A stretch of 64,000 nucleotides of DNA from Bacillota bacterium (GCA_021771915.1 JAETNY010000009.1:40038-104037); one strand, 5' to 3'; numbered from the stretch's first letter, positions 4,241 through 59,055 are shown. Numbers and translations: made by a program. Notes: generated by a model from the letters alone, not told the origin.

Positions 4241-6125
4241 TTGGCTGTTCTGGCATAGTGCTGTTATAATGAATTTGTACGTTTTCAGGTACATTACTTT
4301 CCGCATTTTTAATTTTTAACCAGTCTTCCTCTGTGCCCTCATAATACATATCTGTTAGGTTTTTTGCCCATACAAACATGGTTTCAGGAAAAGCACATTC
4401 CACAACGCTTTTTGGTATATAGATTTCGTTTAAAGCATCAGCCATAAAAGCACTTTCGATAATAAATACGCTATCAGGAACAACGTAAATTTTGTTTGTA
4501 TTTGCATCAAAATATTGAATTAAAGTAGTTTTATCTTTGTCAAATAAGACCCCATTTTCTATACAATAATTATCATTATTGGTATTTAATAAAACTTCCG
4601 TTAATTTAGGACAACCAGACAAGGCACCAATATAAATTTTTTCAACACTTGCCGGAATTGAAACACTAACAAGATTGTTGCAACCATTAAAACAAAAATC
4701 ACCTATTTCAAGTAAACCCTCCGGTAAAATTATTTTAGTCAAATTTTCCTTGTCTGTAAATGCAAATGGAGCAATATATTTTACAGCAGTTCCCTTAATT
4801 TCCGACGGAATATCAGCAACCGTAACGCCAACATCACAACCTGTTATAGTATTGGTTGCTTTAATAAAATAAATATTGCCTCCCACAACAGGATATAATA
4901 ATTCAGGCTCAGGATAATCTGTATAATCATAAGAATAGCCAAATAAATCATCTAATGAATAACCGCTTTTAGATAATAGTGTGCTTAATTCTTTTTCACT
5001 GCCCTCATAAGTTATATCCAGATTACTGTTAGTATCCAAGGACTGTAAACCAATACTTTTTATGCCTTTGTGCATAGTCAAATATCTTAAATTGCTGCAA
5101 TTATAAAATACATGATTGCCTATTTGGGTTACAGGTACATCATCAATACTTTTAGGTATAACAACAGAAGTAACAGTATCATCACAGCCAACTATAATAC
5201 CTGTTGCTTTATCAAAATACATATATCCACCAGATACTGCAACTTTTTCATATGATGAGAAATCTTCACTCGCAAAAGAAATATTGACATTTTTCAAAAC
5301 ATCATCAACCGTGTCCATCACATTTATTTTTGCCCATTCTGCTCGAGAACCTAAATAATTAATATTTTTTAAATCAGATGCAGCAAATGCAGAACCATAA
5401 ATTCTGGTAATAGTTGCTGGCACAGTAATATCAGCCAGCTTATAACAATTTGCAAATACACTTCTTGAAAAGCCCATAAATCCTTCAGGGAAATTAATAT
5501 TTTCTAAATTTCTACAATCATAAAATGCAGATTGATTAATCATTGTACAAGAGATTGGTAATTTAACACTGGTTAATTGATTACATCTATTAAATGCATC
5601 ATGATTTATGGTTGTTACAGTGTCTGGAACTGCATATATTCCTGTTTTACCTATTGGACATCTTAACAAAATAGTTTTATCTTTATTAAATAAAACACCA
5701 TTTTCAGTAGAAAAATCAGAATTTGAGGAGGATACCATAATTTCTTTTAACTTAGGACACCCTGAAAAAACACCACTGACCTCATTTCCCCCAATGCTAT
5801 TTACAGTAGCAGGTATGCTAACCATATAGAGATTATCGCAACCAGCAAAGGCATTTTTACCAATAACTTTTACACCATTATAAACCGTAACAACTGTAAT
5901 ATCGTCACGATATGCGGCCCAAGGTTGCGTTTCTAATGTATAATCTGGCATTGCCGCATTAATTTGTCCCTCATATTTGTAAATTTCCAGATTGCCCTCA
6001 CTGTTTAACTGCCAACTTATGTCTCCGGATAGACCACTGGCAACAGTGGCCGCCCAGGCCGCAGGCGCCATACTTAGCGCCAGCAAAAATGCCAGCGCCA
6101 GCACGGCAAAAATTTTCTTTTTCAT
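3066..6125 (-). CDS. Cell-surface protein with BspA-type leucine-rich repeats, a Big_2 domain, a Listeria-Bacteroides repeat, a G/S/T/P linker and three SLH domains
   Basis: 1019 aa with a signal peptide (MKKKIFAVLALAFLLALSMAPAAWA). The LRR_5-like repeats are AT-rich (roughly 4300-5900). The C-terminal 390 aa, including the SLH motifs FADVQNNAWYSEAIAYVYNKGMMNG.., is paralogous to the 56725..59055 protein. Confidence 0.85.
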   Translation of the reverse strand: MKKKIFAVLALAFLLALSMAPAAWAATVASGLSGDISWQLNSEGNLEIYKYEGQINAAMPDYTLETQPWAAYRDDITVVTVYNGVKVIGKNAFAGCDNLYMVSIPATVNSIGGNEVSGVFSGCPKLKEIMVSSSNSDFSTENGVLFNKDKTILLRCPIGKTGIYAVPDTVTTINHDAFNRCNQLTSVKLPISCTMINQSAFYDCRNLENINFPEGFMGFSRSVFANCYKLADITVPATITRIYGSAFAASDLKNINYLGSRAEWAKINVMDTVDDVLKNVNISFASEDFSSYEKVAVSGGYMYFDKATGIIVGCDDTVTSVVIPKSIDDVPVTQIGNHVFYNCSNLRYLTMHKGIKSIGLQSLDTNSNLDITYEGSEKELSTLLSKSGYSLDDLFGYSYDYTDYPEPELLYPVVGGNIYFIKATNTITGCDVGVTVADIPSEIKGTAVKYIAPFAFTDKENLTKIILPEGLLEIGDFCFNGCNNLVSVSIPASVEKIYIGALSGCPKLTEVLLNTNNDNYCIENGVLFDKDKTTLIQYFDANTNKIYVVPDSVFIIESAFMADALNEIYIPKSVVECAFPETMFVWAKNLTDMYYEGTEEDWLKIKNAESNVPENVQIHYNSTMPEQPTNIPVTGVTLDKTALNLEVGGTATLTATVAPANATNKNIMFISSNAKVATVDKDGKVTAVGKGAAIITATAGDKKATCAVTVTADKVYTITFDTDGGTLAEGITNPDYVIKGETYKMPTATKSRYTLTAWAIGDKDSENKVKANDVYTFTADTTVYAIWQYNGGGGSHGGSSRPSGTTTTKPGTTEKPGDTNKPGTTIDNNKTVTAANVNNKFADVQNNAWYSEAIAYVYNKGMMNGTDAGKFEPDATTTRAMLVTMLFRLEGEPKAGAADFSDVASGQWFSEAIAWAAANGVVNGYKDGTFAPNDMITREQLAAVLYRFAQFKGYDVSVKGSLSNFSDSGSVSDWAQEAMQWAVGAGIINGDNGALKPAGNATRAEVAMMLMRFCENVAK

Positions 6126-8686: not shown

Positions 8687-9745
8687 ATGTCTAGTATTAA
8701 TGTTATCGACCTTTTTTGTGGTTGCGGCGGCCTGTCTTTCGGATTTTCAAAGGCTGGTTATAATATCCTGCTTGGAATTGATAATGACGCCAAAGCACTG
8801 GAAACATTTAAATTAAATCACCTTAATGCAAAAGCAATTTGCAGTGATATTACCCAAATATCATACCAAAAAGATATTAAACCATTAATAGAACCATGCC
8901 AAATAGATGTGATTATTGGCGGCCCTCCCTGTCAGGGTATGTCCTTATCCGGCCCCAGAAAATTCGATGACCCAAGAAATTCCTTATATTTATCTTATAT
9001 CAGACTGGTTAAAGAAATTCAACCTAAAGCTTTTGTTATTGAAAACGTACCTGGTCTAACCAGTCTTTTTGGCGGACAGATAAAAGATAATATAATTGAA
9101 CAGTTTAGCCAAATCGGCTATCATGTGCAGTATAAAATCCTTTGCGCATCAGACTATGGAGTGCCACAAAGCAGACGCAGAGTATTTTTCATCGGACTAA
9201 AATCCGGCAGCTTCACTTATCCACAGCCAACTGATAATGTTGTTACTTGCAGCATGGCTCTGAATGACCTGCCCAGTTTAATCAGCGAGTTGGGCGATGA
9301 AATAATGGCCTATGCAACAGAACCGCAAAACGATTATCAAAAACAAATGCGAAAACATTCAAAAAGTGTACAGAACCACATTGCTGCTAATCATACAGAC
9401 AAAGTACGCAAAATAATCTCTTTGGTTCCTGACGGCGGAAATTATAAAGATTTGCCGGAAGAATACAAAACAAGTAGAAATTTTCATATTGCCTGGACAC
9501 GATTTGACAGCAACAAGCCCGCACCTACTATTGATACCGGGCATCGTCATCATTTTCATTACAAATATAACCGGGTTCCAACTGTAAGAGAATGTGCAAG
9601 ATTGCAGTCTTTTCCAGATAATTTTATTTTTCTGGGTAATAAAACTCAACAGTTCAGACAGGTTGGCAATGCCGTGCCGCCACTTTTAGCGCAAAGAATT
9701 GCTGAACAATTAAAGAAATCATTGGAGAATGAAATAAATGGCTGA
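8687..9745 (+). CDS. DNA (cytosine-5)-methyltransferase, M1 of a restriction-modification cassette
   Basis: Motif I FCGCGGLSFGF, motif IV GGPPCQGMS, motif VI ENV, motif VIII RRRVFFIG, motif X QVGNAVPPLLA. The region is AT-rich relative to its flanks. Confidence 0.9.
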   Translation: MSSINVIDLFCGCGGLSFGFSKAGYNILLGIDNDAKALETFKLNHLNAKAICSDITQISYQKDIKPLIEPCQIDVIIGGPPCQGMSLSGPRKFDDPRNSLYLSYIRLVKEIQPKAFVIENVPGLTSLFGGQIKDNIIEQFSQIGYHVQYKILCASDYGVPQSRRRVFFIGLKSGSFTYPQPTDNVVTCSMALNDLPSLISELGDEIMAYATEPQNDYQKQMRKHSKSVQNHIAANHTDKVRKIISLVPDGGNYKDLPEEYKTSRNFHIAWTRFDSNKPAPTIDTGHRHHFHYKYNRVPTVRECARLQSFPDNFIFLGNKTQQFRQVGNAVPPLLAQRIAEQLKKSLENEING

Positions 9746-11201
9746 ATATAAAATTCCCGAAGAATATTATTTCAGATTACACCATGTCCGCCCACGTTTT
9801 AAGAGTGATATTGAAAATGTCTTAATTTATATGGCGGAAGAAATTACTTCAATAGGACAAAAACCAACCCAGGAGTTTGTCAGGCTTATTAATTCAGCCG
9901 TTTTCAGATATCCCGGCAATGCGCATAGCACACTTAAAACTATAAATAATTGGCGCACTGAAATATCTGCTTTATTTGGTTTTATTGAACATGATGAATT
10001 AACCTGCAAACCCGGCAGGCGTGCTGTTGAATTAGCAACAAACCAGGATTTGGTAGAAGCCTTTAAGGTTTTTTTATATAACTTTCAATATCCAGGCGCT
10101 CATATTAAACCACACCGCATTTTAGAACAAATTAATGCCGGTATTCATTTTAAACCGGCGCAATATATATTACGTTTGCTAAAACACGCTAATAAAAACA
10201 GCCAAAACGCGGTTGGTTTAACAAAGTTTGAGGTTTGTCACTGCATTTTCAACGATTTAAGAGTAACCCGTGATAATGAAGGCGTTGAAAACACCTGGCA
10301 GAGAATAAAACTAAATCGCCAAAATAATTTAGAATACGACCAAACAGGCGATGTGATAAGATATGCCGGCGATATTGTTGACTACATGGAAAAAGCCAAT
10401 TTGTTAAAAACATATGACAACCGTACATATTATCTTAATATGCAGGAGAAAACAATTATCAACCAATTCTGCCAATCAACAGAATGGTTTGACGGTTATG
10501 ACCATATGCTGCAAAATCGTGCCGGCAATAAGACCAGTATTAAGGAACAAACAAATGCCTGGTTTGAATATGTAAACAGGGATATTGAAAATATTGATTT
10601 TTCAACAAACATTTTTGCATACATTGAATATAACCCAACAAAACTGCAACAATTACAAGCAGGCACTGGCAATATAACAAAAGGTTCTTTTAAAACTCTT
10701 ATAAAACGTGAAGCGGAATTGAATAAACGCATTGCTGTTGGTGAAGATGAACTTACGGCTAAGGATATCGGCGATATCGGCGAACAGCTGATACATGGCC
10801 ATGAATGTATGAGAATGAAGCTGGGCAACAGAGAAGATTTAATACATCTAATAAAATTGATACCAACACAATTTGCAGTTGGCTACGATATAAATTCTGT
10901 CGAATTAAATGAACTGAAAAGATTTATTGAAGTAAAAACAACAATTAGCGCTAAGCCATTGCATTTTACTAAAATACATTTGACCAGAAACGAATGGAAT
11001 ACAGCCAGAAGTACCCATGATCGTTACTATATTTATCGGCTGATGTTAAGTAAAACTGAACGCAAATTATTTTTGTTGCAAGACCCAGTTGGCTTATACG
11101 AAAAGAAGTTAATAGAAATTGCTTATAATGACGGAATAGATATTATATTTAACCCCAAAACAGCAGGAAAGTATGAGGAATTGCTTACATGGCAAAATTA
11201 A
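9738..11201 (+). CDS. Putative restriction endonuclease: novel N-terminal region plus a C-terminal DUF3883-like PD-(D/E)xK nuclease domain
   Basis: Translationally coupled between the two C5-methyltransferases, with 8-nt and 13-nt overlaps. The C-terminus reads DIGDIGEQLIHGHE...GYDI...ELKRFIEVKTT...YYIYRL, i.e. a D...E-x-K core. Confidence 0.55.
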   Translation: MAEYKIPEEYYFRLHHVRPRFKSDIENVLIYMAEEITSIGQKPTQEFVRLINSAVFRYPGNAHSTLKTINNWRTEISALFGFIEHDELTCKPGRRAVELATNQDLVEAFKVFLYNFQYPGAHIKPHRILEQINAGIHFKPAQYILRLLKHANKNSQNAVGLTKFEVCHCIFNDLRVTRDNEGVENTWQRIKLNRQNNLEYDQTGDVIRYAGDIVDYMEKANLLKTYDNRTYYLNMQEKTIINQFCQSTEWFDGYDHMLQNRAGNKTSIKEQTNAWFEYVNRDIENIDFSTNIFAYIEYNPTKLQQLQAGTGNITKGSFKTLIKREAELNKRIAVGEDELTAKDIGDIGEQLIHGHECMRMKLGNREDLIHLIKLIPTQFAVGYDINSVELNELKRFIEVKTTISAKPLHFTKIHLTRNEWNTARSTHDRYYIYRLMLSKTERKLFLLQDPVGLYEKKLIEIAYNDGIDIIFNPKTAGKYEELLTWQN

Positions 11202-12166
11202 GAGTTGCATCACTATTTTGTGGCTGCGGCGGAACTGATGTTGGTTTGCTTGGCGGTTTTGATTTTATAGGTAAACATTATGCAAATAATAATATAGAAA
11301 TTGTTTATGCCAACGATATAAACGATAATGCCTGTAAATTATTTGAAGCAAACTTCAATCTCAAACCAGATAATAGGGATATCAGAAAAGTACAGTGTAC
11401 AGAACTGCCGGAATTTGATATATTAACCGGCGGCTTTCCCTGCCAATCTTTCTCTATCGTTGCTCAAAACCCAAAACGCTTAGGCGTTAATGATGAAAAA
11501 GGAAAACTCTTTTTTGAAATGTGCCGTATCCTTAAAGAAACAAAACCCAAATGTTTTGTGGCTGAAAATGTTAAAGGAATTTTAACAGCTAATAAAAAAA
11601 GTGCATTTCCCTTAATTTTGCAGGAATTTGCGGAAAGTGGCTATGACTTGCAATATGCTATTTTAAATGCCGCGGATTTTGGCGTGCCACAAAAAAGAGA
11701 ACGTGTAATAATCGTTGGCTTTCGTAAAGATTTGAATATCAGATTTAAGTTTCCGACAGTTCCTATTACTAACGAAACTGAATATGTGCCTCTGAAAAAG
11801 GTATTGGAAAAACATGTGCCAGAAAAATACTATTTCAGCGCTAAAGCGGTTCAGGGAATGTTAAAAAACCGGGAAAGTATGAACAAAGGACGCGCGCAGG
11901 ATATTACAAAACCATGTAATACAGTTGGCGCGCATTTGGCCAAGGTATCGCTTAACAGCACAGACCCCGTTTTATTTGAAAACAACAGATATCGACGCTT
12001 TACACCAAGAGAAGTTGCCAGAATTCAGTCTTTTCCTGAAGAATATAAATTAACTTGCAGTGAAACCGCTCAATATCAGGCGCTGGGCAATGCAATACCA
12101 CCTGTTATGTTCTGGTATGTTGCACAGGCAATAAGCCGACATTTAACCAAAAAAGCATCAATCTAA
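11189..12166 (+). CDS. DNA (cytosine-5)-methyltransferase, M2 of the cassette
   Basis: FCGCGGTDVGL (motif I), GGFPCQSFS (motif IV), ENVKGIL (motif VI), RERVIIVGF (motif VIII), ALGNAIPPVM (motif X). Confidence 0.9.
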   Translation: MAKLRVASLFCGCGGTDVGLLGGFDFIGKHYANNNIEIVYANDINDNACKLFEANFNLKPDNRDIRKVQCTELPEFDILTGGFPCQSFSIVAQNPKRLGVNDEKGKLFFEMCRILKETKPKCFVAENVKGILTANKKSAFPLILQEFAESGYDLQYAILNAADFGVPQKRERVIIVGFRKDLNIRFKFPTVPITNETEYVPLKKVLEKHVPEKYYFSAKAVQGMLKNRESMNKGRAQDITKPCNTVGAHLAKVSLNSTDPVLFENNRYRRFTPREVARIQSFPEEYKLTCSETAQYQALGNAIPPVMFWYVAQAISRHLTKKASI

Positions 12167-23957: not shown

Positions 23958-26048
23958 ATGAGCAATAAACAGAAGGTTCTGATTGTGGACGATTCAGAAA
24001 TGAACCGTTCCATTTTGGCGGATATTCTGGGCGATAAATATGAAATAATTGAAGCTGAAAACGGCGTGCAGGCCGTGGCCACTATCCAGAAGTATGGCGC
24101 AGAACTTTCTGTGGTGCTTCTGGATATGGTTATGCCCAAAATGGACGGTTTTGGTGTGTTGGATATGATGAACCAACACCATTGGATTGATGAAATCCCA
24201 GTGATTATGATTTCCGCCGAAAGTTCCTCCTCTTATGTGGAGCGTGCTTATGATATGGGCGTTACCGATTTTATCAGCCGCCCCTTTGACGCGCTGATTG
24301 TCCGCCGGCGCGTTATCAACACCATTTTGCTTTATGCCAAGCAGAAAAAGCTTACCAGCCTTTTGGCTGACCAGCTGCTACAAAAGGAAGAACGCAGCAA
24401 TTTGATGGTGGACATTTTAAGCCACATTGTAGAATTTCGTAACGGTGAGAGCGGCATGCATGTTATTCACGTCCGCCTGATTACCGAGCTTTTGCTGAAC
24501 CATTTAATGCATAAGGTTGAACGCTACAATGATTTGACCCATGAAGACTTGGATATGATTAGCATGGCCTCCGCCCTGCATGATATTGGCAAAATATCCA
24601 TTGATGAAGCAATTTTGAACAAACCCGGCCGGCTGACCGATGAAGAATTTGCGATTATGAAGACCCATGCTCTGATTGGCGCGCAAATGCTCTCAGAAAT
24701 GCCTTATAAAGATAATAAGCTTATCCAGACAGCTTATGAAATTTGCCGCTGGCACCATGAGCGTTATGACGGCAGCGGTTATCCCGATGGTCTGAAAGGC
24801 GATGAAATTCCGATTTCCGCCCAGATTGTGGCAATGGCCGATGTTTATGACGCTCTGACCAGTGAGCGCGTTTATAAAAAAGCCCTGCCGCATGAAACTG
24901 CTGTGCAGATGATTATAGATGACAAATGCGGCGTCTTTAACCCGGAATTAAAAGAATGTTTGCTTGATGTGGCCGAAACAATCCGCAGCACACTGGCTTC
25001 CGACGTGGTGGCCTTAAACCAGAAGCGAGCTTCTCAGAACGCAGTGGCGGAGATGTTGCGCAACAATGAAACCAGCGCTTCAGAGCGCACATTGCGGCTG
25101 CTGGAAAAAGAAAGAGAGAAATATAAATTCTTCGCTGCGCTAACTAAGGAAATTCAGGTTGAATATAATCCTGACCCACCCACGCTGACGCTCTCCCCCT
25201 GGGGCGCGCAAAAGCTTGGACTGGACGAAATTATCATGGACCCTCAGAATAATGAGCAGGTTCTGACTGTGACCGGCGCGGAAAATTGGCAGAAGATAAC
25301 TGAACTGCTGTTAAACTCCACACCAGAGCAGCCGATGATTAAATATGACTGCAAGATGTTTTATAATGGAGAGTTGCGTTGGCATCAGGTTATTGCTCGC
25401 GCCATGTGGCAGCAGGAGGACGAACCAATCTTTCAGGGCGCTATTGGCAAGGTTATTGATATTCATGATTCCAAACAGCGTCTGGCAGAGTTGGAGCGCA
25501 AGGCCAATCATGACTCCTTAACAGGTCTGCTGAACCATGCCAGCGCCAAAAAACATATCATTGAAAGTCTGGAAGGACACCCACACGACAAATATGCACT
25601 GATTATTTTTGACCTGGACCATTTCAAAAATGCCAACGATACCTATGGCCATATTTTTGGCGATGAGGTTTTAAAGCTGGAAGCGCAAAAGTTAAAAGGC
25701 AGCTTGCGCGCCGGCGATATTGCCGCCCGTATTGGTGGTGATGAATTTTTAATCTTCCTTCGTTATACAGATGAGGTTGAGCCAATTATTGAGCGTATTT
25801 TTAAAACATTGATTGGCCGGCATGAAGATTTTGAATTTACGGTAAGCATGGGCATAGTGCAAACTGAGTTTGCGGATAATGATTATGAAACACTTTTCCA
25901 TTGCGCCGACCAGGCGCTTTATGCGGCCAAACGCGGTGGCCGCGGACGCTATTGCTTTTATAGAGATGATTTGCCGGATACTATTCATAATAAAGCAAAA
26001 TCATCTCTTTCCAAGATTGAAAGCAACGACCCAAACCGTGAATGTTAA
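23958..26048 (+). CDS. Response regulator with REC + HD-GYP phosphodiesterase + GGDEF diguanylate cyclase domains
   Basis: REC reads VLIVDDSEMNRSIL...LLDMVMPKMDG. HD-GYP reads HVIHV..ALHDIGK..HHERYDGSGYP. GGDEF reads RIGGDEFLIFL. Confidence 0.85.
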   Translation: MSNKQKVLIVDDSEMNRSILADILGDKYEIIEAENGVQAVATIQKYGAELSVVLLDMVMPKMDGFGVLDMMNQHHWIDEIPVIMISAESSSSYVERAYDMGVTDFISRPFDALIVRRRVINTILLYAKQKKLTSLLADQLLQKEERSNLMVDILSHIVEFRNGESGMHVIHVRLITELLLNHLMHKVERYNDLTHEDLDMISMASALHDIGKISIDEAILNKPGRLTDEEFAIMKTHALIGAQMLSEMPYKDNKLIQTAYEICRWHHERYDGSGYPDGLKGDEIPISAQIVAMADVYDALTSERVYKKALPHETAVQMIIDDKCGVFNPELKECLLDVAETIRSTLASDVVALNQKRASQNAVAEMLRNNETSASERTLRLLEKEREKYKFFAALTKEIQVEYNPDPPTLTLSPWGAQKLGLDEIIMDPQNNEQVLTVTGAENWQKITELLLNSTPEQPMIKYDCKMFYNGELRWHQVIARAMWQQEDEPIFQGAIGKVIDIHDSKQRLAELERKANHDSLTGLLNHASAKKHIIESLEGHPHDKYALIIFDLDHFKNANDTYGHIFGDEVLKLEAQKLKGSLRAGDIAARIGGDEFLIFLRYTDEVEPIIERIFKTLIGRHEDFEFTVSMGIVQTEFADNDYETLFHCADQALYAAKRGGRGRYCFYRDDLPDTIHNKAKSSLSKIESNDPNREC

Positions 26049-26080
26049 AAATCTGAACATATATTAAGGAGGTTATTCTT

Positions 26081-26434
26081 ATGACTTTAGAAGAATGTTA
26101 TGTCGCTTTGGAAGGCAGTTATGCCGACGCCATAAGCAGACTGCGCAGTGAAAAGCTGGTGCGCAAGTTTGCCTTAAAATTTCTGAATGACGGCAGCTAT
26201 CAGCTTTTGCAGGACTCTCTGGCCAAAGAGGATTATGCGGAGGCTTTTCGTGCTGCCCATACTATTAAAGGCGTTTGCCAAAATCTGGCCTTTGATAAGC
26301 TGGGTAATTCCAGCGAGCATTTAACGGAGTCTTTGCGCAATGGCTGGAGTGACGCCGCGCCGGCTCTGATTGAGCAGGTTAAAGCGGATTATCAGCAGAC
26401 GATTGCCGCCCTGAACGACCTGGACCCGGAATAA
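26081..26434 (+). CDS. Hpt (histidine phosphotransfer) domain protein
   Basis: 117 aa with the AAHTIKGVCQNLAF phospho-histidine motif. Confidence 0.8.
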   Translation: MTLEECYVALEGSYADAISRLRSEKLVRKFALKFLNDGSYQLLQDSLAKEDYAEAFRAAHTIKGVCQNLAFDKLGNSSEHLTESLRNGWSDAAPALIEQVKADYQQTIAALNDLDPE

Positions 26435-26511
26435 TCCATCTGCTTTATAATAACGCTGGGGTTAAACGTGTCCATAAACTTTAACCAAAACGTGAAGGAG
26501 TTTTTATATCT

Positions 26512-29070
26512 GTGCATAACCTTAATTTAAAAAATAAAAACACCATTTTAATACTTTTCAGTATTTTACTGGGGTCTATTACGATTGCGGTATTCTTATA
26601 TCTGGCCTTTTGGGTACGCAGCCAAACCACCGAAACCATAAACAATGTTGGCAATATGTATATGGACGGACTGAATGAACGCATTACAAGACACTTCAGC
26701 ACAACTATGGATTATCGTTTCGCCCAGCTGGAAGAAATCATTGAGGAAACCCCAGATGAATACAGTAACAGCGTTAACCAGATACATAGTTACCTGGCAA
26801 ACTCAGCTATACGTCATGATTTTAATGAATTAACGCTTTGCGGCGCTGATGGCTGGCAAGATTCTATATATGGTAATGGTATAACCATGTATGCCGAAGA
26901 ACTGTTTGTGGAGGCGCTTACGGACGGCGACCGATGGGTGGCCACCGGTTTTGATACAAGCGGCAATTCAATCCTGCTTATGGGTATTCCGGCACAATTT
27001 CCCATGCAGGACGGCACTCTCAGCAGCGGCCTGATAGTTGGCATGCCCCTTGATTACATGACCCAGGTTCTGGAGGCCAGTGATACTCTGGCTTCATCGC
27101 ATATTATCCGCAAAGACGGCTCATATGTTCTGCGCAGTGATGGCAGCACCGCCAATACTTTCCGGGAACGCCTGATAGAACTTTACTCCCCACAGGATAT
27201 TGAACAGATTGAACTTGCCAATACCCAAGCTCTGGCCGCCATGCAGAAAAATGAAAATTATTCTGTCATGCTAACCCTGAATGAAACGCGTGAGCATTGG
27301 TATTTTACCAGACTGCCCTATTCCAACTGGTATCTTACCACCAGAATGCCTTTTGGCACTTTAGACCAGGCTGTAAACATGCTTACCCGTTCCACTCTAT
27401 ATGCAGCGCTTTTTGGTTGCCTTATCCTGCTTGTTGGTTTACTTATTCTGTTTATTTTCTTTAATAATATGACCAAAACTCAGCTGCTGGCGCTTAATCG
27501 GGCCCGAAAAGAAGCTGAAAGAGCCAACAAAGCCAAAAGTGAATTTTTATCCAGCATGAGCCATGATATCCGCACCCCCATGAATGCAATCGTGGGTATG
27601 ACGGCGATTGCCGCTGCTAACATTGATAACCGCATGCAGCTGGAAAACTGCCTGAACAAAATTACCCTTTCCAGCAAGCATTTGCTGGGGCTTATCAATG
27701 ACGTTCTGGATATGAGCAAGATTGAAAGCGGCAAGCTGACCATGAATATCGACCAGGTTTCCCTGCGTGAGGTTATGGACAGTATCGTCAGCATTGTACA
27801 GCCGCAGGTTCACGCAAAAAATCAGACTTTCAACGTTAGTATTCACGATATTGACACTGAAAATGTCTGCTGCGATGGCGTGCGTCTGAACCAGGTTTTA
27901 ATCAACCTGCTTTCCAATGCCATTAAATTTACACCAGAAAAAGGCACAATCTCACTGGCATTGCATGAAGAAGCATCTCCCAAAGGCGAAAATTTTGTGC
28001 GTATCAATCTGGAGGTTAAAGATACTGGCTATGGTATGTCGCCAGAATTTACCGAACGCATTTTTGATTCATTCTCCCGGGAGAATACAGACCGTGTTCA
28101 CAAAACAGAAGGCACAGGTTTGGGCATGTCTATTACCAAATATATTATTGATACTATGGGCGGCACTATCAGCCTGGAAAGTAAACAAGGCGTTGGCACC
28201 ACTTTCTATGTAACGCTTGATTTGGAAAAAGCCAGCATTCAGGAAACCGATATGAAACTGCCGAACTGGCATATGCTGCTGGTTGACGACGACCCCATGC
28301 TTTGCAAAAGCGTTATCGCCGCTTTAAAAGATATTGGCGTGCAGGCAGAAAGCGTTTTGGACGGCGAAAGTGCTATCAAGCTGGTTAAAAAGCGCCATGA
28401 CGAAAACAATGATTTCCAGATTATCCTTTTAGACTGGAAGCTGCCCGGCATTAACGGCATTGACGCCGCTAAGGAAATACGTCGGCAAACCGGCGAGGAA
28501 ATTCCAATTCTGCTGATATCAGCCTACGACTGGACGGATATTGAAGAAGATGCACGCACTGCCGGCATCAACGGCTTTATTTGTAAACCACTCTTTAAGT
28601 CCACTCTTTATTACGGTTTGCGTCCCTATGCCAATGACCCAGACGATAAAAAGCAGACCAAGCTTAAGAAAACAACTCGTGACTTTACTGGCAAAAAGAT
28701 TTTGCTGGCCGAGGATAATGACCTTAACTGGGAAATTGCTGAAACACTGCTTTCTGAGGAGGGGCTGGAGTTGGATTGGGCTGAAAATGGTCAGGTTTGT
28801 GTAGAGGTTTTCCAGCAATCCGATGTTGGTTATTATGACGCTATCTTAATGGATATCAGAATGCCGGTTATGAACGGCTATGACGCCGCCAAAACCATAC
28901 GCAGTCTGGAACGCCCAGACGCGGCGGAAATCCCGATTATCGCCATGACTGCGGACGCCTTTGCGGAAGATATTCAGCGCTGTCTGGACGTTGGCATGAA
29001 CGCTCATATCGCCAAACCGATTGATATACATGACGTTCTGGTTCAACTGGACAAATACATGAAACCATAA
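26512..29070 (+). CDS. Hybrid sensor histidine kinase: transmembrane + extracytoplasmic sensor, HisKA, HATPase and two C-terminal REC domains
   Basis: GTG start with a GAAGGAG Shine-Dalgarno. H-box HDIRTPMNAIVGM. G-box GTGLGMSI. REC motifs LLVDDDPM..LLDWKLPGINGID and ILLAEDND..LMDIRMPVMNGYD. Confidence 0.85.
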   Translation: MHNLNLKNKNTILILFSILLGSITIAVFLYLAFWVRSQTTETINNVGNMYMDGLNERITRHFSTTMDYRFAQLEEIIEETPDEYSNSVNQIHSYLANSAIRHDFNELTLCGADGWQDSIYGNGITMYAEELFVEALTDGDRWVATGFDTSGNSILLMGIPAQFPMQDGTLSSGLIVGMPLDYMTQVLEASDTLASSHIIRKDGSYVLRSDGSTANTFRERLIELYSPQDIEQIELANTQALAAMQKNENYSVMLTLNETREHWYFTRLPYSNWYLTTRMPFGTLDQAVNMLTRSTLYAALFGCLILLVGLLILFIFFNNMTKTQLLALNRARKEAERANKAKSEFLSSMSHDIRTPMNAIVGMTAIAAANIDNRMQLENCLNKITLSSKHLLGLINDVLDMSKIESGKLTMNIDQVSLREVMDSIVSIVQPQVHAKNQTFNVSIHDIDTENVCCDGVRLNQVLINLLSNAIKFTPEKGTISLALHEEASPKGENFVRINLEVKDTGYGMSPEFTERIFDSFSRENTDRVHKTEGTGLGMSITKYIIDTMGGTISLESKQGVGTTFYVTLDLEKASIQETDMKLPNWHMLLVDDDPMLCKSVIAALKDIGVQAESVLDGESAIKLVKKRHDENNDFQIILLDWKLPGINGIDAAKEIRRQTGEEIPILLISAYDWTDIEEDARTAGINGFICKPLFKSTLYYGLRPYANDPDDKKQTKLKKTTRDFTGKKILLAEDNDLNWEIAETLLSEEGLELDWAENGQVCVEVFQQSDVGYYDAILMDIRMPVMNGYDAAKTIRSLERPDAAEIPIIAMTADAFAEDIQRCLDVGMNAHIAKPIDIHDVLVQLDKYMKP

Positions 29071-39178: not shown

Positions 39179-40078
39179 ATGCGATTTTTACGTTTAATAG
39201 GTTTAAGTATGTTAATGTTGGTTTTGGCTGTTCAGCCGGCGTTAGCTTTTGATACCAGCAAGGACGACCAGCTGTTAATGCTGGTAAACAGGGAGCATAC
39301 TTTGGACGCAAGCTGGCAGCCCAATGACCTTTTGGATATTGCCAAGCTGGCCCCAAGCACCAAGGGCGTTATGCAGTTGCGCGACGCTGCGGCTAATGCT
39401 TATATCAGAATGTATACTGCTTATAAGGAAGAAAAAAATTTAACGCTGAACACAATTTCCGGTTTTCGGAATTATAATGTACAAAAACAGCTGTTTAACG
39501 GCAAAGTAGCCAAACGGCAGCACGCCGGCCAAAGTTATAAAACGGCCTATAACAACACGCTGCTTTATACGGCTTTGCCGGGAACCAGTGAGCACCAAAC
39601 CGGTCTGGCGATTGACTTGAGCAATAACACCGGCCTTTCGGATAACTTCCGCAATACCGAGCAAGGACAATGGCTGCTGACTAACTGCTGGAATTATGGT
39701 TTCATTTTGCGCTATGATAATAACAAAACCGCGCTGACTGCGGTGGCCTATGAGCCATGGCATTATCGTTATGTCGGTTTGCCCCATTCTTTGATTATGC
39801 GTGACCATGGATGGGTGCTGGAAGAATATATGGACGCGCTGCATAAACTGCCAGCCGGCAGCTATATGGAATATGCCGACCCGGCTAATGCGGAAATGGT
39901 TTATCGCATTTACTATACCCAAGATACAAACCAGGAATTTGAAGACGTTATCAATATATCCAGCGACAACTGCGGCGGCTATGTTATCACTACCCACATG
40001 CATAATGTGGAAGATTTATTGGTTGCATGGTCTGAGATAGCTTTGCGAACACCGCCTATTCCGGCCAGCTTAAGTTAA
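39179..40078 (+). CDS. Secreted D-alanyl-D-alanine carboxypeptidase (M15B/VanY family)
   Basis: Signal peptide plus the motif LPGTSEHQTGLAIDL. Confidence 0.85.
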   Translation: MRFLRLIGLSMLMLVLAVQPALAFDTSKDDQLLMLVNREHTLDASWQPNDLLDIAKLAPSTKGVMQLRDAAANAYIRMYTAYKEEKNLTLNTISGFRNYNVQKQLFNGKVAKRQHAGQSYKTAYNNTLLYTALPGTSEHQTGLAIDLSNNTGLSDNFRNTEQGQWLLTNCWNYGFILRYDNNKTALTAVAYEPWHYRYVGLPHSLIMRDHGWVLEEYMDALHKLPAGSYMEYADPANAEMVYRIYYTQDTNQEFEDVINISSDNCGGYVITTHMHNVEDLLVAWSEIALRTPPIPASLS

Positions 40079-46137: not shown

Positions 46138-46209
46138 GCAATCTTGACAAGCCCCCAAATACGGCTTATAATAAAACAAATCCATTATCAGAACAGTAAG
46201 GAAAAGATT

Positions 46210-46940: not shown

Positions 46941-47013
46941 ACTACTCTTGTAGTATTGACATTTTCATAAGACTATGGTAGTATATAGATAGAGCCGCGC
47001 GGACTCTATCTAT
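46941..47013 (+). promoter_or_regulatory. blaI-like promoter (TTGACA-17-TAGTAT) with palindrome ACTACtcttGTAGT over -35 and a 10-bp inverted repeat ATAGATAGAG-N8-CTCTATCTAT in the 5' UTR
   Basis: Read directly. The layout resembles the TACA/TGTA-type operators of BlaI/MecI-family repressors. Confidence 0.5.
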
Positions 47014-47039
47014 TTTTATTCTATAAGGAGCATTGCGAT

Positions 47040-47420
47040 ATGACTGCACAAGTGGAAATGAAGCTGGGCGATTCCGAAATCAAGGTGATGAATGTAATCT
47101 GGCGGCTGGGCGAGCCGACCGCCAGGCAGGTAGCGGAAATTTTGCAGGCAGAGGTGGGCTGGAATGTCAATACCACCTACACACTGATTAAGCGCTGTAT
47201 CCAAAAGGGCGCTGTGCAGCGACTGGAGCCGCATTTCATCTGCCGGCCGCTGGTCAGCAAGCAGAGTGTGCAGGCCGCCGAAACCAACAATTTAATTAAC
47301 AAAATTTATGATGGCTCCGCAGAAAAACTTTTTGCGGCGCTGCTGGGGCGGCAAAACGTCAATCAAACGCAGATAGACCAACTGCGCCAGCTGGTGGAGG
47401 AATGGCCCGATGAGCCTTAA
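47040..47420 (+). CDS. BlaI/MecI/CopY-family transcriptional repressor
   Basis: KLGDSEIKVMNVIWRLGEPTARQVAEIL... winged-helix region plus a dimerisation C-terminus. Confidence 0.85.
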   Translation: MTAQVEMKLGDSEIKVMNVIWRLGEPTARQVAEILQAEVGWNVNTTYTLIKRCIQKGAVQRLEPHFICRPLVSKQSVQAAETNNLINKIYDGSAEKLFAALLGRQNVNQTQIDQLRQLVEEWPDEP

Positions 47421-49653
47421 ATTGTTAAGCCCAACACAATGGAGTCTAAGCATAGTCCTGTTAATTGCAGTTGTAACGCTGCTGCGCTGCCTGCTGCAAA
47501 ACAGACGCTGGCTGCCAATGGCCGTCTGGTCGCTGCTCTGGTGGCTGGTGCTGGCGCGTCTGCTGCTGCCGCTCTGCCTGCCCTGCCCGTACAGTCTGCA
47601 AAATCTTTGGCCTGAAAATAATCCCCAAACGGTTATTGCGGAAACGCCGAATATTAATAATTTTATTCATTTGGCAGACGTCAACCCAGACCCTGCCCTT
47701 CCCGATAACCCCACTTATACGGCGAACAGCCCGACCGAAGCGGCAATCCATTTGAATACCGGCGCCCAACTGCCAATTTGGCAACTGATTTGGCTGACCG
47801 GAGCCAGCATCTGCGCCGCCTTTTTCGGGCTGGTTTATTGGCGCAGCAAACGCCGCTTTCAACAGACAGAAGCGCTAAAGCCGGAATTGCAGACTTCAGT
47901 ACAGCAATGGCTGGCCGAACACCAACTGCGCCGCACCGTTACCGTGCGCCAAACCAACCAGATTTGCACGCCGCTGACTTACGGACTGTTCCGCCCGGTG
48001 ATTTTGTTACCGGCCGATATGCCGAGCCAACAGCAAGACAGCCTGCATTTTGCTCTGCTGCATGAATGGACGCATATTCGCCATTTTGACGCCGCCGCCA
48101 AAATGCTGGCCGCCGCGGCGCTGTGTCTGCACTGGTTTAACCCGGCGGTTTGGCTGTTTTTTGCCCTGTTCAACCGCGATTTGGAGTTGGCCTGTGACGC
48201 CGGCGTGTTAAAGCACTGCGGCGCTGACGCGAAAAATCGGCGCAATTATGCACTGGCTCTGTTAAGCTGGGCGGAAACGCAAAATACCGCCGCCACTTTT
48301 TGCAGCAATTTCGGTCAGTCCCCAAATAATGTGATAGAAAAAAGGATAGTGAATATTATGAAGATGAAAAAAGTGAGCGTTTTAAGTCTGGGCGCCGCCT
48401 GCCTGCTGCTGCTTGTTACGGTAATAGCCGGCGCTACCAATCAGCCGGAGCCAAATAATTTACTGACGGCCGACCAGCTGAATAATGCCGATTATATTGA
48501 TTATAACAACATGAGCGACGCGGAACTACACCAAATCTATTCCGAACAGTCACGCGCCCAGTGGGCCATGCTGCTGGAGCCATACACCCAGTTTGGTCTG
48601 GGCTGGCAGTTTGACGACCCGGATTTTGACGGCAACGGCCTGAAGATGTATTATCAGGGGCACGAGGTCAGCGGCATTTATGACGAAACTACCGGCACCT
48701 GGCTGACCGAGCATGCTGGCGACAGCAATTTTGCCGCGGACGCGGTGGAACTGCACACCGTCTACACCGACGGACAGCTTTCCGGCCTGCGTCTGGCCAC
48801 GCCGGAGGAACAGGCGCAATGGGACGAGCAGCGCGCCCGGCCAATGTACAAACACGTGCAGCCCTACGAGCAGTTTGGCCTGACGATGGGCGAGGAAAAC
48901 CGGCTGTTCTATAACGGCCAGCCGGTGCGCTACTTCTGGGACGGCTACAATGTTACAGAGAACGGCCAGAATTTGGGACGAGCCCTTCATTTTGAATATC
49001 TGAACCAGCAGGGCGAGGTGGATTTACGTACCCGGCGCGATGTGATTTATAATGCCGACGGCAGCGTTGACCCGTTTGGCGAGTTGCTGGGCCTGGAGGT
49101 TTATGTGGAAGAAAATTTTGCTGCAATGCTGAACCCGGCCGCCCAACAGATAACCTATGCCGAATATGACGAGGAGCAGGCCGACCAAACCTCCACGGAC
49201 GAAATACCGCGGCTCCAGGTAGCCTACTATATCTATAACAATCCAGACGAGATGGCGGAAAATGACCAGACGATGGCCGAACTGATGGCACAATATGAGC
49301 AGTTTGGTCTGGAATACCGCGAGGAAATTACAGATATTGGCACCCGGCGCAATATTTACTTTCAGGGGGAATTAGTCAGCGCATTTATTGATAACTCGCG
49401 CAGCAGAGGCCTGACGGTACAAAGCAGTACCCAGCCGGAGCAGCCGCAGTTTGTCATGACGGAATATGACTTAAGAGGGCAGCTTATCGGTCTGCGTCTG
49501 GCCACCGAGGAGGAAGTAAACGAACGATTGAACCGCTACACCCCACAAAACGACATCAAATTCCAACGCGCCTATAACGCCAACGGCAAACTAACTCTTT
49601 ATTATAGCACCGATAACAACCGCACGCATAAGGCGATTACCAAACCGGAATAA
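47410..49653 (+). CDS. BlaR1-like M56-family membrane metalloprotease (HEXXH) with a novel extracellular C-terminal repeat domain
   Basis: FALLHEWTHIRHFD is M56. Transmembrane segments near aa 10-55 and about aa 315. The C-terminus has three repeats of PY(T/E)QFGL...(Y/F)(Y/F)xGxxV and QL(S/I)GLRLAT(P/E)EE. No PBP/beta-lactam sensor motifs (no SxxK). Confidence 0.8.
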   Translation: MSLKLLSPTQWSLSIVLLIAVVTLLRCLLQNRRWLPMAVWSLLWWLVLARLLLPLCLPCPYSLQNLWPENNPQTVIAETPNINNFIHLADVNPDPALPDNPTYTANSPTEAAIHLNTGAQLPIWQLIWLTGASICAAFFGLVYWRSKRRFQQTEALKPELQTSVQQWLAEHQLRRTVTVRQTNQICTPLTYGLFRPVILLPADMPSQQQDSLHFALLHEWTHIRHFDAAAKMLAAAALCLHWFNPAVWLFFALFNRDLELACDAGVLKHCGADAKNRRNYALALLSWAETQNTAATFCSNFGQSPNNVIEKRIVNIMKMKKVSVLSLGAACLLLLVTVIAGATNQPEPNNLLTADQLNNADYIDYNNMSDAELHQIYSEQSRAQWAMLLEPYTQFGLGWQFDDPDFDGNGLKMYYQGHEVSGIYDETTGTWLTEHAGDSNFAADAVELHTVYTDGQLSGLRLATPEEQAQWDEQRARPMYKHVQPYEQFGLTMGEENRLFYNGQPVRYFWDGYNVTENGQNLGRALHFEYLNQQGEVDLRTRRDVIYNADGSVDPFGELLGLEVYVEENFAAMLNPAAQQITYAEYDEEQADQTSTDEIPRLQVAYYIYNNPDEMAENDQTMAELMAQYEQFGLEYREEITDIGTRRNIYFQGELVSAFIDNSRSRGLTVQSSTQPEQPQFVMTEYDLRGQLIGLRLATEEEVNERLNRYTPQNDIKFQRAYNANGKLTLYYSTDNNRTHKAITKPE

Positions 49654-49657
49654 AACA

Positions 49658-49692
49658 GCAAGCCGCCTGTCCAAACGGACAGGCGGCTTTAC
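49658..49692 (+). terminator. Rho-independent terminator
   Basis: agccgcctgtcc-aaac-ggacaggcggct followed by TTT. Confidence 0.7.
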
Positions 49693-49745
49693 TATTGACA
49701 AGCAATTTAAAGCGCATTATAATAGAAGAAAAAGGAGGAAAAAAG

Positions 49746-50411
49746 ATGAACCTTTCAATAAAAAAAGCCATGCGCAGCTATTTTGCCGGCAAACTGCGGC
49801 TTGGTATATTTTGGTTCGCGCTTTTCTGCGTGGCCGGCTATGTACAGATTGAACTGTTTTATGGTCCACTGGACTGGTTCTATGAGCGCTATCCCTACAT
49901 AACCGGTATAATTGGCGGCCTGAACCTGACCGCTTTTGGCATCAGCCTTGGCTATCTGCTGACGCGGCTGGTAACCCGGCTGAATTACACCGGCCGCCTG
50001 CGCAGGGATTTAAGCCGCATTTTACCGTCTAATGAGGCCGCCGACCCATATGCCGTGCTGGACGCTGATATCAAACGCCAGCCCTGGCCGCAGGCCCCTG
50101 TTTATCTTGGCGAGCGCTGGCTGGTAATGCCCGGGCATGCCCTGCGGCGCGACCACATTGTCGGCATTTTCTATGAAGAACTGCACAAATCCTTTTTATC
50201 AACCAGAGTTCGCCTGACAATCGTGGACGAGTTGGGCGGCGAAATGTATCTGGATATCAAGCCCGACCTGCACCCGGAAATTTTTCAGACGTTGTCCAAA
50301 CTGCACCCGGCCGCCACAAACGCCGACCATCGGGTTTTGCGTTCCCTGCCGGAGGGCAGCGGTTTCCGCAGTCTGCGCCAGAATAATGAGCCGCCGCTCT
50401 CCCTCAATTAA
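49746..50411 (+). CDS. Hypothetical membrane protein
   Basis: AAAGGAGGA Shine-Dalgarno before the ATG at 49746. 2-3 predicted transmembrane segments. Confidence 0.45.
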
Positions 50412-56724: not shown

Positions 56725-59055
56725 ATGAAAAAGAAATTTTTTGCTGTGCTAATGCTGGCATTTGTGCTGGCATTGAACACTACGCCCACGGCTTGTGCGG
56801 CGGATAGAACTGCGGCGCAGGCTATTGCGGACTGTGTTGCGGCATTTAACGCTGATGCGAACCACGGCACCGGTGAACTGCAAGCAGAGGTTAACGGTGA
56901 TACTGTAACCATTACCGGCACGGTTACGGACGCTGAAAAACCTTTGGTTTTGAAGTTGGAAGGTGGCCTTAATGCCAGCACCGGTAATGCTACAGTGAAC
57001 TGGCAGGCCGATTTAACCGGTAGTGTTTACAATTATTTGGTTTATGTGTCCGGTTACGATAACCCAAAGCAGGTTATTACCTTTAACGCCACTAAAGGGC
57101 ATATTACCAATCAAAACTCCTCGGGCTGTGCTTTGAAGCCTTATATGGCAGAAATTAATGTCAGCGGCGCAGTAATTTCCGGTTACTATGGTATTGACGC
57201 GTCCATTTATCAAGATAGCGCTTATAGTATCAACATCACCAATAGCGGTTTAGTTGCTGGCACAGAATTAGGTGTGGTAGGCTATATTGATACTTTGAAA
57301 AACGGCGGCGTTGTTTATGGCGGCAAGTGGCCGGCAGCTTCCAGCCCAAACGCTTCTACGGAATTAAATCCATTTGGTATTGCATTGCCCAGTTTTGTGA
57401 TTTATGGCAAACTGCCCGGTGAGGCGACTCTTACGGCAGGCAGCACCAATGGTCTTAAATGTTATCCTGCTAATGCCACGGGCAACGCTGAATGGGCGGT
57501 TGAAGATGGCAAAAGCGGTATTTATGTCAGCGGCAGCGGTTTTGTGGAACTGCCCGGTTTAACGGTTACCGAGCCCACCGGCGTGCTTGGTTTGAACAAG
57601 AGCAAGGTTACCTTGGCTGTTGGGGAGACTTTTCAGGTAGAGCCTTATAAGGTTAACCCGGCTGACGCTGAAGTGAAATGGATGTTTGGCAAATTGACAA
57701 GCAGCGGTGGATACACTTATTATGAGGTTATTGAAACTGATATTGCCACCGTTGACGCTAATGGTCTGGTTACTGCGCAAAAAGAAGGTACGGTAACACT
57801 GTTGGGCAGAGCGGCGAAACCAGACGGCACATGGTATAATCAGCAAGGCATTTGTCAAATTACTGTTGTTAAGGCTGCTGATAAACCAACTGTTGCCGTT
57901 ACCGGCGTTCAATTAAACCAAACAGCTCTGAATTTGGAAATTAACGGCACTGCCACACTGATTGCCACAGTTGCACCGGAAAATGCCACCAATAAATCCG
58001 TCCGCTGGAGCAGTAACAATACCGCGGTGGCAACTGTGGACGCTAACGGTAATCTCAAGGCTGTGGCCCCTGGCAAGGCCACAATCACCGCGACGGCTGA
58101 CGGCGTGAAAGCTGAATGTCGGGTAACTGTTACCGCTGATACGGTTTACACCATTACCTTTGACACGGACGGCGGCACTCTGGCCGCTGGTATTACCAAT
58201 CCGGATTACGTGGTTAAAGGTGCGGAATACAAAATGCCCACCGCTAACAAGAGCCGCTACAAACTGACCGCCTGGGCAATCGGCAGCAAAGACAGCGCGA
58301 ACCAAGTTAAGGCGAACGATGTTTACACTTTCACTGAGGACACCACGGTTTATGCCATTTGGCAGTATAACGGCGGCGGTGGAGGCGGCAGCCACAGACC
58401 AAGCGGCAGCGGTACGACCACGCCGACCACGCCAACCAAACCGACCAATCCGGAAAAGCCGGGTAACAGTGGCAACACTGGCAGCAGCACGGTAACGGCG
58501 GCGAATATTAAAAATGTGTTTGCGGACGTACAGAATAACGCCTGGTACTCCGAAGCGATTGCTTATGTTTACAATAAGGGCATGATGAACGGTACGGACG
58601 CCGGCAAGTTTGAGCCGAACGCGACGACCACCCGGGCCATGTTGGTAACCATGCTGCACCGTCTGGAAAATGAACCGGCAGCAGCAGCGGCCAAATTCAG
58701 CGACGTAGCTTCCGGCCAGTGGTTCAGCAAAGCTGTGGCCTGGGCGGCGGCTAATGGAGTGGTAAACGGCTATGAGAATGGCACGTTTGCACCAAATGCA
58801 GCAATTACACGTGAACAGCTTGCTGCGATATTGTATCGTTTTGCCCAGTTTAAGGGCTATGACGTGAGCGTTAAAGGCAATTTGAGCAGCTTTAGCGATA
58901 ACGCGCAGGTTTCCGACTGGGCGAAGGAGGCTATGCAGTGGGCGGTTGGCGCTGGTATTATCGATGGGGATAACAATGCCTTGAAGCCGACCGGCAATGC
59001 CACCAGAGCCGAGGTTGCGATAATGTTAATGCGTTATATTGAAAATGTTAAATAA
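56725..59055 (+). CDS. SLH-domain cell-surface protein, paralog of 3066..6125, with a different N-terminal passenger region
   Basis: 776 aa with a signal peptide (MKKKFFAVLMLAFVLALNTTPTACA). It has a Big_2 domain and the same Listeria-Bacteroides-repeat / linker / three-SLH module as copy A. Confidence 0.85.
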   Translation: MKKKFFAVLMLAFVLALNTTPTACAADRTAAQAIADCVAAFNADANHGTGELQAEVNGDTVTITGTVTDAEKPLVLKLEGGLNASTGNATVNWQADLTGSVYNYLVYVSGYDNPKQVITFNATKGHITNQNSSGCALKPYMAEINVSGAVISGYYGIDASIYQDSAYSINITNSGLVAGTELGVVGYIDTLKNGGVVYGGKWPAASSPNASTELNPFGIALPSFVIYGKLPGEATLTAGSTNGLKCYPANATGNAEWAVEDGKSGIYVSGSGFVELPGLTVTEPTGVLGLNKSKVTLAVGETFQVEPYKVNPADAEVKWMFGKLTSSGGYTYYEVIETDIATVDANGLVTAQKEGTVTLLGRAAKPDGTWYNQQGICQITVVKAADKPTVAVTGVQLNQTALNLEINGTATLIATVAPENATNKSVRWSSNNTAVATVDANGNLKAVAPGKATITATADGVKAECRVTVTADTVYTITFDTDGGTLAAGITNPDYVVKGAEYKMPTANKSRYKLTAWAIGSKDSANQVKANDVYTFTEDTTVYAIWQYNGGGGGGSHRPSGSGTTTPTTPTKPTNPEKPGNSGNTGSSTVTAANIKNVFADVQNNAWYSEAIAYVYNKGMMNGTDAGKFEPNATTTRAMLVTMLHRLENEPAAAAAKFSDVASGQWFSKAVAWAAANGVVNGYENGTFAPNAAITREQLAAILYRFAQFKGYDVSVKGNLSSFSDNAQVSDWAKEAMQWAVGAGIIDGDNNALKPTGNATRAEVAIMLMRYIENVK
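57900..59055. repeat. Shared C-terminal SLH module, copy B
   Basis: See 3066..4240. Confidence 0.8.

Follow-up and report, generated by a model that had tools for sequence, protein, structure and literature searches.

A BlaI/BlaR-type repressor and membrane-protease pair with three uncurated repeat units, and no penicillin-binding domain, as its putative sensor

Switches of the BlaI/BlaR type are best known for sensing penicillins. In S. aureus BlaR1/BlaI, an M56 membrane metalloprotease is paired with a winged-helix repressor, and the zinc/catalytic and stabilising residues of the protease have been described (PMC9834060). Only ~6% of ~15,000 M56 proteins carry a transpeptidase domain (Kurtz et al. 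2026, PMC13492132). According to the same survey, the architecture seen most often among M56 proteins in InterPro lacks an identifiable C-terminal domain, fusions of M56 to M23 occur frequently, and the CenIR pair of C. difficile controls envelope genes in response to a signal that is unknown (PMC13492132). In light of that survey, it is to be expected, and no surprise, that a BlaIR pair should lack a penicillin sensor. Here we describe such a pair from a 64,000-nucleotide stretch of Bacillota bacterium DNA (GCA_021771915.1, JAETNY010000009.1:40038-104037), referred to as the window, from whose first letter all coordinates are counted. An earlier, sequence-only reading of the window had drawn attention to the pair and to its unusual C-terminal region.

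We consider it fairly probable that the pair forms a self-contained, autoregulated proteolytic switch of the BlaI/BlaR type, whose sensor is made of three uncurated alpha/beta units of ~90 amino acids (aa) and contains no penicillin-binding domain. Since three uncatalogued units stand where that domain would be, the signal is presumably not a penicillin. The nearest relatives of the locus are L002, from a metagenome-assembled genome (MAG) of an uncultured Peptococcaceae (91% identity), and L003, from a mouse-gut Firmicutes MAG (62%).

Gene pair, protease module and operators

The following features make up the pair and its protease half:

47040..47420 (+): blaI-family winged-helix repressor, 126 aa, PF03965, with no CxC metal motif
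47410..49653 (+): M56 metalloprotease gene, an open reading frame (ORF) of 747 aa
47410..48438 (+): M56 membrane zinc-protease module, residues 1-343, delimited by PF05569, hydropathy, motifs and alignment to 8exs

Both ORFs lie exactly where the sequence-only reading had placed a translationally coupled BlaI/M56 pair. They overlap by 11 nt, with the M56 ATG inside the 3' end of blaI (ATGAGCCTTAA) and GGAGGAA 8 nt 5' of that ATG. Family membership is supported on both sides: PF03965 (Penicillinase_R) matches the repressor over residues 9-121 of 126 (1.4e-23, 83.9 bits, cut-off 22.6), and PF05569 matches the protease over residues 11-315 (6.7e-47, 160.5 bits, cut-off 31). The repressor scores under the CopY, BlaI and MecI equivalog cut-offs of NCBIfam; its top match there is TIGR02698 (CopY_TcrY), which reaches 68.2 bits where 121.95 would be required, and its only cysteines are C53 and C78, with no C-terminal CxC. 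The arrangement recurs in related loci, where blaI stands directly 5' of the M56 gene in about 76 of 80 and the BlaI proteins are 47-66% identical to that of the window, except in L003 (79%).

The HEWTH protease motif is present at residues 218-222, as had been read, and is accompanied by E259-xxx-D263, D227, Y280 and a CSNFG loop at residues 298-302. In an alignment to S. aureus BlaR1 (PDB 8exs), H218/E219/H222 correspond to H201/E202/H205, D227 to D210, E259xxxD263 to E242xxxD246, and Y280 to Y261, and judged by these correspondences the protease half looks catalytically competent. The CSNFG loop aligns within one residue of the BlaR1 S283|F284 autocleavage bond, and relatives have SHF or SNF in its place. 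Hydrophobic segments were located by hydropathy at residues ~3-32, 34-61, 123-144, 233-254 and 318-345, and homology to the BlaR1 cryo-EM structure would put the C-terminus outside. The final membrane helix comprises residues 322-343; the transmembrane segment formerly placed near residue 315 does exist, but slightly later in the chain.

Similarity to BlaR1 is confined to the part of the protein that precedes the ectodomain. The NCBIfam model blaR1_generic covers residues 19-339 only (profile positions 12-323 of 585) at 95.6 bits against a cut-off of 400, and the PDB match to BlaR1 ends at residue 337; the canonical beta-lactam sensor-transducer models tested were NF000326, NF033108 and NF033109. 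No PF00905 transpeptidase match was obtained with Pfam on the M56 protein, and a motif scan found neither SxxK nor K[ST]G anywhere past the final membrane helix, in keeping with the earlier statement that SxxK/KTG motifs are missing (none after residue 344).

Upstream of blaI, the promoter region contains these elements:

46941..46954 (no strand): operator O1, ACTAC-TCTT-GTAGT (ACTACTCTTGTAGT), a perfect dyad abutting the -35 element; position weight matrix (PWM) score 18.9
46956..46984 (+): blaI-blaR promoter, TTGACA (46956-46961), 17 nt and TAGTAT, with an extended -10 (TG)
46969..46982 (no strand): operator O2, AAGAC-TATG-GTAGT, left half degenerate, over the spacer and the -10 element; PWM score 10.4
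46985..47021 (+): terminator-like 5' leader hairpin, arms 46985-46994 and 47004-47013, then TTTTTATT

Taken alone, ACTACNNNNGTAGT is within chance for 64 kb, as 35 of 100 shuffles match it with at most one mismatch. Across 990 kb from 81 related loci, the form ACTAY-N4-RTAGT occurs 145 times against ~3.8 expected, and 144 of these sites fall within ~100 bp upstream of blaI. Conservation across ~60 related promoters thus argues for a genuine BlaI-type operator in the first palindrome, as proposed from the sequence alone, although it abuts the -35 element instead of lying over it. In the relatives, the operators come in sets of two or three (O1 at the -35, O2 over the -10 and O3 in the leader) and the layout of -35, -10 and operators is conserved, with a centre-to-centre distance between O1 and O2 of 28 bp in the window and 26-28 bp elsewhere. 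O1 and O2 are also the two highest PWM scores of the window, the third being 8.6. The consensus shares the TAC/GTA core and the spacing of the family (cop) box KACANNTGTM (RNYKACANNTGTMRNY; PMC7253601) and differs at the innermost base. Comparison of the related promoters shows the operon's own promoter to carry at least two operators, which BlaI-family dimers are predicted to occupy.

The 10-bp inverted repeat of the untranslated leader had likewise been taken for an operator. This assignment did not hold, and the real second site, O2, had been missed: the repeat has a non-operator sequence, its stem covaries and a T-run follows it, on which grounds we read it as a leader hairpin and not as a BlaI site. 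A stem and T-run occur in the matching place in L003 (~5560-5600) and in locus L082 (1-40) with compensatory changes, for example AGA/TCT in the window versus GTT/AAC in L003. The hairpin, with an RNA fold of -14.6 kcal/mol (z -1.5), lies past the blaI promoter and ahead of the ribosome-binding site, in the position occupied by O3 in other lineages. It might act as an attenuator or stabilise the 5' end, or it might be the upstream gene's terminator, set after the blaI promoter.

Repeat units of the ectodomain

The region beyond the final membrane helix divides as follows:

48556..48828 (+): unit A, residues 383-473, membrane-proximal, of the 'WLTEHAGD' subtype by profile; 54-61% identical to the lone unit of Oscillibacter M56-M23 fusions
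48838..49134 (+): unit B, residues 477-575, with a long beta-hairpin and an N-x-DGS-x-DPFG loop
49135..49266 (+): linker joining B to C, residues 576-619, acidic (isoelectric point (pI) 4.05) and predicted to be disordered
49267..49533 (+): unit C, residues 620-708, predicted local distance difference test (pLDDT) 89-95
49534..49653 (+): basic C-terminal tail, residues 709-747, and stop; pI 9.8, pLDDT 51-79

The three degenerate repeats that had been noticed in this region are borne out as units A, B and C. A profile of the three units re-finds the unit one to three times in each of the 13 relatives of the first search, with per-unit E-values down to 7e-21, and defines a stretch of ~90 aa with an N-terminal helix bearing PYxxFG, then YYxGxxVRxFxD and then a G-x-L-x-G-L strand. 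Nothing in Pfam or NCBIfam matched residues 340-747. The description of the sensor as undescribed therefore stands for the domain itself, which is absent from Pfam, NCBIfam and the PDB, but not for the wider class, because M56 proteins without a transpeptidase domain are known. The C-terminal tail has short beta-strands at moderate confidence and is conserved in the closest relatives only (L002, L003).

AlphaFold2 models of the units were confident. Unit B, modelled with the unit alignment (pLDDT 87.8, predicted template modelling score (pTM) 0.78), has an N-terminal helix packed against six antiparallel strands, including one long hairpin. When residues 475-747 were modelled with 34 two-unit B-C modules as the alignment, both units exceeded pLDDT 90, the linker at 575-611 fell below 50 and the pTM was 0.45; this low linker confidence and low pTM suggest that the units are independent beads on a flexible acidic string. 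Foldseek returned no significant match to the modelled units in the PDB (best E 1.0) or in BFVD (best E 0.13), and the units match no penicillin-binding protein or BlaR1 sensor structure, the comparison proposed earlier as a check on the reading. The predicted fold of units B and C would thus be one without a solved or viral-model neighbour, which is short of a proven new fold.

All units have an acidic pI (4.0-4.6, with a family median of 4.4), and they are cysteine-free and aromatic-rich. They are also the better conserved part of the protein: in L003, the relative at 62%, the units are 78-81% identical versus 55% for the M56 module, and in Oscillibacter proteins unit A is 53-68% identical versus 40-45% for the M56 module. 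These identities show the units to be under what appears to be stronger purifying selection than the protease. The long hairpin of B-type units is tipped by a nearly invariant N/D-x-D-G-S-x-D-P-F-G loop (NADGSVDPFG, residues 549-559), which resembles a calcium-binding loop and has no counterpart in units of types A and C.

When a profile of 17 units was run exhaustively with HMMER against representatives of clusters built at 50% identity, 1,072 of them matched at E<=1e-3 and 597 at <=1e-10. In view of the 1,072, the mere 13 and 8 relatives given by word-indexed search reflect a limit of sensitivity and not rarity. Among the best 150 HMMER matches, 84 are M56 proteins with the units after the last transmembrane helix, and 57 are short protease-free proteins, many with signal or lipoprotein-like N-termini; each of the 150 bears two to five units. 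The number and type of units vary modularly among family proteins, and the two-unit B-C module recurs in 84 of the 170 examined. Neither Pfam nor NCBIfam matched the units of 10 and then 8 diverse members, whose extra domains were M56 and M23 only, together with a weak sub-threshold FG-GAP match in P0089. The unit is met in three contexts, namely M56 proteins, M56-M23 fusions and free lipoproteins; one of the fusions is named 'M23/M56 family metallopeptidase' at NCBI, and the M23 part of the fusions is most similar to peptidoglycan DD-endopeptidases. One free two-unit lipoprotein (P0013, L085 6001-6873) is encoded on a conjugative element with a relaxase, a NikA-like protein and DarA_C, its gene lying directly 3' of those for a response regulator and a 405-aa protein without a Pfam match.

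A scan of one genome per species with the full protein as query gave 369 relatives. Beyond the two nearest, they belong to Oscillibacter, Dysosmobacter, Lachnospiraceae, Ruminococcus, Acetatifactor and similar groups, and all retrieved loci are from gut and rumen Clostridia. About 55 of 80 M56 proteins of the related loci bear at least one unit. Some MAGs hold several loci, as in one bin with the paralogous loci L072 and L077.

Proposed switch, its cue and its neighbourhood

By analogy with S. aureus BlaR1/BlaI (PMC9834060), a ligand engaged by the ectodomain would be relayed across the membrane to the cytoplasmic zinc site, where BlaI would be cleaved; BlaI would then leave O1/O2 and the operon would be derepressed, along with any distal ACTAY-N4-RTAGT targets. 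As to the cue, we tentatively propose, with less than even confidence, a polymeric or multivalent envelope ligand, for example peptidoglycan or a glycan of the wall. Three observations favour a cue of this kind: the only ectodomain unit of Oscillibacter M56-M23 endopeptidase fusions is unit A, tandem units on flexible linkers suit multivalent ligands, and the units, which are aromatic-rich, also occur in free lipoproteins. A broader proposal, in which the unit is a new fold and family serving as an envelope or gut glycan/peptide sensor of one of the largest orphan BlaR subclasses in gut Clostridia, with a distal ACTAY-N4-RTAGT regulon, is more doubtful and on balance somewhat unlikely.

Several points weigh against the proposed switch or its envelope cue. 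The ectodomain as a whole has a pI of 4.3, whereas many wall-binding modules of Gram-positive bacteria are basic, and domain fusion is the one line of evidence for the cell-wall proposal. The window promoter has two operators only, one of them degenerate, with an unexplained leader hairpin in the place of the third. Within +-6 kb in the 81 loci, blaI and M56 are the only gene families that recur. A search for operator sites elsewhere had been suggested as a way to define the regulon: the 64-kb window has no operator off the operon's own promoter, and the 81 loci with +-6 kb gave a single match, in a coding region. With no operators elsewhere in the sequence scanned, the operon itself is the only demonstrated target, and any output beyond autoregulation is hypothetical. 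Binding, cleavage and induction are steps that would follow from sequence and from analogy to BlaR1/BlaI. Finally, in a manual alignment, the window repressor seems to have A-L in the place of the N101|F102 scissile bond of S. aureus BlaI, an Asn-Phe bond that lies in the C-terminal dimerisation helix of the BlaI/MecI subgroup.

The same relay could serve a ligand that does not come from the cell itself, such as a gut glycan, a bile or host compound, or a competitor's peptide or protein. The confinement of the retrieved loci to gut and rumen Clostridia is in line with this, as are the two-unit lipoproteins found beside a response regulator on a conjugative element, which suit an accessory, niche-adaptive role. 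Paralogous loci in single MAGs (the L072 and L077 bin) and the acidic, aromatic-rich composition that the units share with many carbohydrate-binding modules point the same way. Set against these, the units are fused most often to a peptidoglycan hydrolase domain, and related loci keep neither transporter nor catabolic genes beside the pair. A non-self ligand is unlikely in our estimate, though it deserves consideration.

We regard as distinctly unlikely a non-sensing ectodomain that acts as a spacer, anchor or localiser while the M56 protease is triggered by the membrane, its extracellular L1 loop or a cytoplasmic BlaI co-effector. Units strung on disordered linkers with no fixed mutual arrangement would be compatible with such a role, as would the presence of autoregulatory operators only in the window, and the tail of CenR is itself largely unstructured, with tether and probe roles proposed for it (PMC13492132). 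A passive spacer is hard to reconcile with units that are more conserved than the protease and vary modularly in number and type.

A mobile-element immunity module (an integrative and conjugative element or prophage repressor/antirepressor pair) or a CopY-type metal-responsive repressor is very improbable. Free repeat proteins do occur on a conjugative element and CopY_TcrY is the repressor's best NCBIfam match, but that match scores 68 against a cut-off of 122, Cys-x-Cys is missing, and the window is core chromosome (gyrAB, uvrB, secA, glmS, cysK, prfB and SLH-anchored surface proteins), with unremarkable GC content around the locus and a neighbourhood that is syntenic in relatives at 62-91% identity. 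Least credible of all, and scarcely worth entertaining, is a canonical beta-lactam sensor with a cryptic penicillin-binding fold and SxxK/KTG, which the family name and the weak blaR1_generic similarity of the N-terminal protease half might suggest, but which is contradicted by the motif, PF00905 and BlaR1 results past residues 337-344, by ~90-aa unit models unlike any penicillin-binding protein or BlaR1 sensor, and by the lack of an adjacent beta-lactamase or PBP2a-type gene.

If the unit does bind a wall or gut ligand, it would be a sensory and cell-surface module new to science and carried by abundant gut commensals; otherwise the locus would merely add to the orphan BlaIR pairs. BlaIR-type switches are widespread, and what those without the penicillin sensor that gave them their name detect is an open question (PMC13492132), to which this locus gives a handle: its sensor unit is sharply defined and strongly conserved, and an operator as specific as ACTAY-N4-RTAGT would let the regulon be read from complete genomes.

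Two further features mark the 3' boundary of the pair:

49660..49689 (no strand): 13-bp GC-rich hairpin right after the M56 stop, present in L002 and absent from L003 and L082
49695..50411 (+): two-helix 221-aa gene (49746..50411) with its own TTGACA-17-TATAAT promoter (49695-49723)

The hairpin is the probable end of the operon. The ORF for a small two-transmembrane protein after the M56 gene exists as read from the sequence, but it is not part of the system: its promoter is kept in L002, L003 and L082, no operator is found there, and its 12 homologue clusters all come from one shared neighbourhood (also containing cysK and a symporter). With its own promoter, no operator and co-occurrence only where the whole neighbourhood is kept, we consider the gene a neighbour and not a component; its product has no family match in Pfam or NCBIfam. 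Two other candidates were rejected. The upstream 235-aa gene also has its own promoter and no operator and is conserved only with the whole neighbourhood, and ABC ATPases, present in 14 loci, were inconsistent in position, size and strand. The neighbours of the pair are mntP, two unknown membrane proteins, cysK and a solute symporter.

Perfect TTGACA-17-TATAAT promoters occur at 46144-46172, 49695-49723 and 51420-51392 (-), three within 5.3 kb flanking the blaI promoter, which is weaker than these sigma-70 consensus promoters and operator-covered. The promoter at 46144-46172 implies that the upstream ORF starts at ~46210 and not at the listed TTG at 46144. Some 7 kb upstream of the pair, a VanY-type D-Ala-D-Ala carboxypeptidase is encoded (39179-40078, +), with no BlaI operator near its gene. 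Surface proteins encoded at 3066-6125 (-) and 56725-59055 (+) have three SLH domains each along with Big_2 and Listeria-Bacteroides repeats, and one of the two also has BspA-type leucine-rich repeats. These SLH proteins suggest that the organism anchors proteins to a secondary cell-wall polymer, making that polymer a candidate ligand class for the units. Elsewhere in the window, a low-GC island (0.36-0.43) at 8687-12166 encodes a BpuJI-like restriction endonuclease between two C-5 cytosine DNA methylases, and at 23958-29070 a response-regulator/HD-GYP-like/GGDEF protein adjoins a two-receiver hybrid histidine kinase, unrelated to the pair.

Comparison with known systems

The closest described systems are compared here in turn. 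The window locus shares with BlaR1-BlaI and MecR1-MecI of S. aureus and B. licheniformis the arrangement of the pair, a PF03965 repressor, HExxH/ExxxD with the additional Asp and Tyr, a last transmembrane helix leading to a C-terminal domain predicted to lie outside, an (S/N)F motif that may correspond to the autocleavage loop, and two dyad operators over the promoter with autoregulation. It differs from them in having no transpeptidase-like sensor, no SxxK/KTG and no nearby beta-lactamase or PBP2a gene, and in operators of the form TAY-N4-RTA versus TACA-NN-TGTA.

The CenIR class likewise combines an M56 protein and BlaI with a non-transpeptidase C-terminal region (PMC13492132). By its description, CenR is set apart by a short, mostly unstructured tail (334-460), whereas the window protein has 400 residues with three folded units (PMC13492132). 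The CenIR regulon takes in a gene 215 bp downstream, while the downstream gene of the window has no operator. Closer in sequence architecture are the 'M23/M56 family metallopeptidase' proteins of Oscillibacter and Dysosmobacter (e.g. WP_325220087.1), which have the M56 module, unit A (54-68% identical) directly after the last transmembrane helix, and blaI upstream with the same operator family. Those fusions have one unit and a C-terminal M23 domain, in contrast to the three units and no hydrolase of the window protein.

CopY/CopR and the cop box (PMC7253601) offer the same winged-helix family, the same dyad geometry and two promoter operators. The window locus differs in having neither a CxC site nor a copper ATPase operon, and its repressor has a protease as partner instead of being metal-regulated. 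An analogy may also be drawn with the PASTA domains of PknB/StkP-type kinases, small alpha/beta repeats on the outside that are linked by a single pass to a cytoplasmic enzyme; no sequence or fold similarity to them was detected, and the output enzyme here is a protease instead of a kinase. Relative to all of these systems, what is new here is a large, well-folded, uncurated sensor-domain family within the M56 'no domain' class, together with a specific three-site operator architecture.

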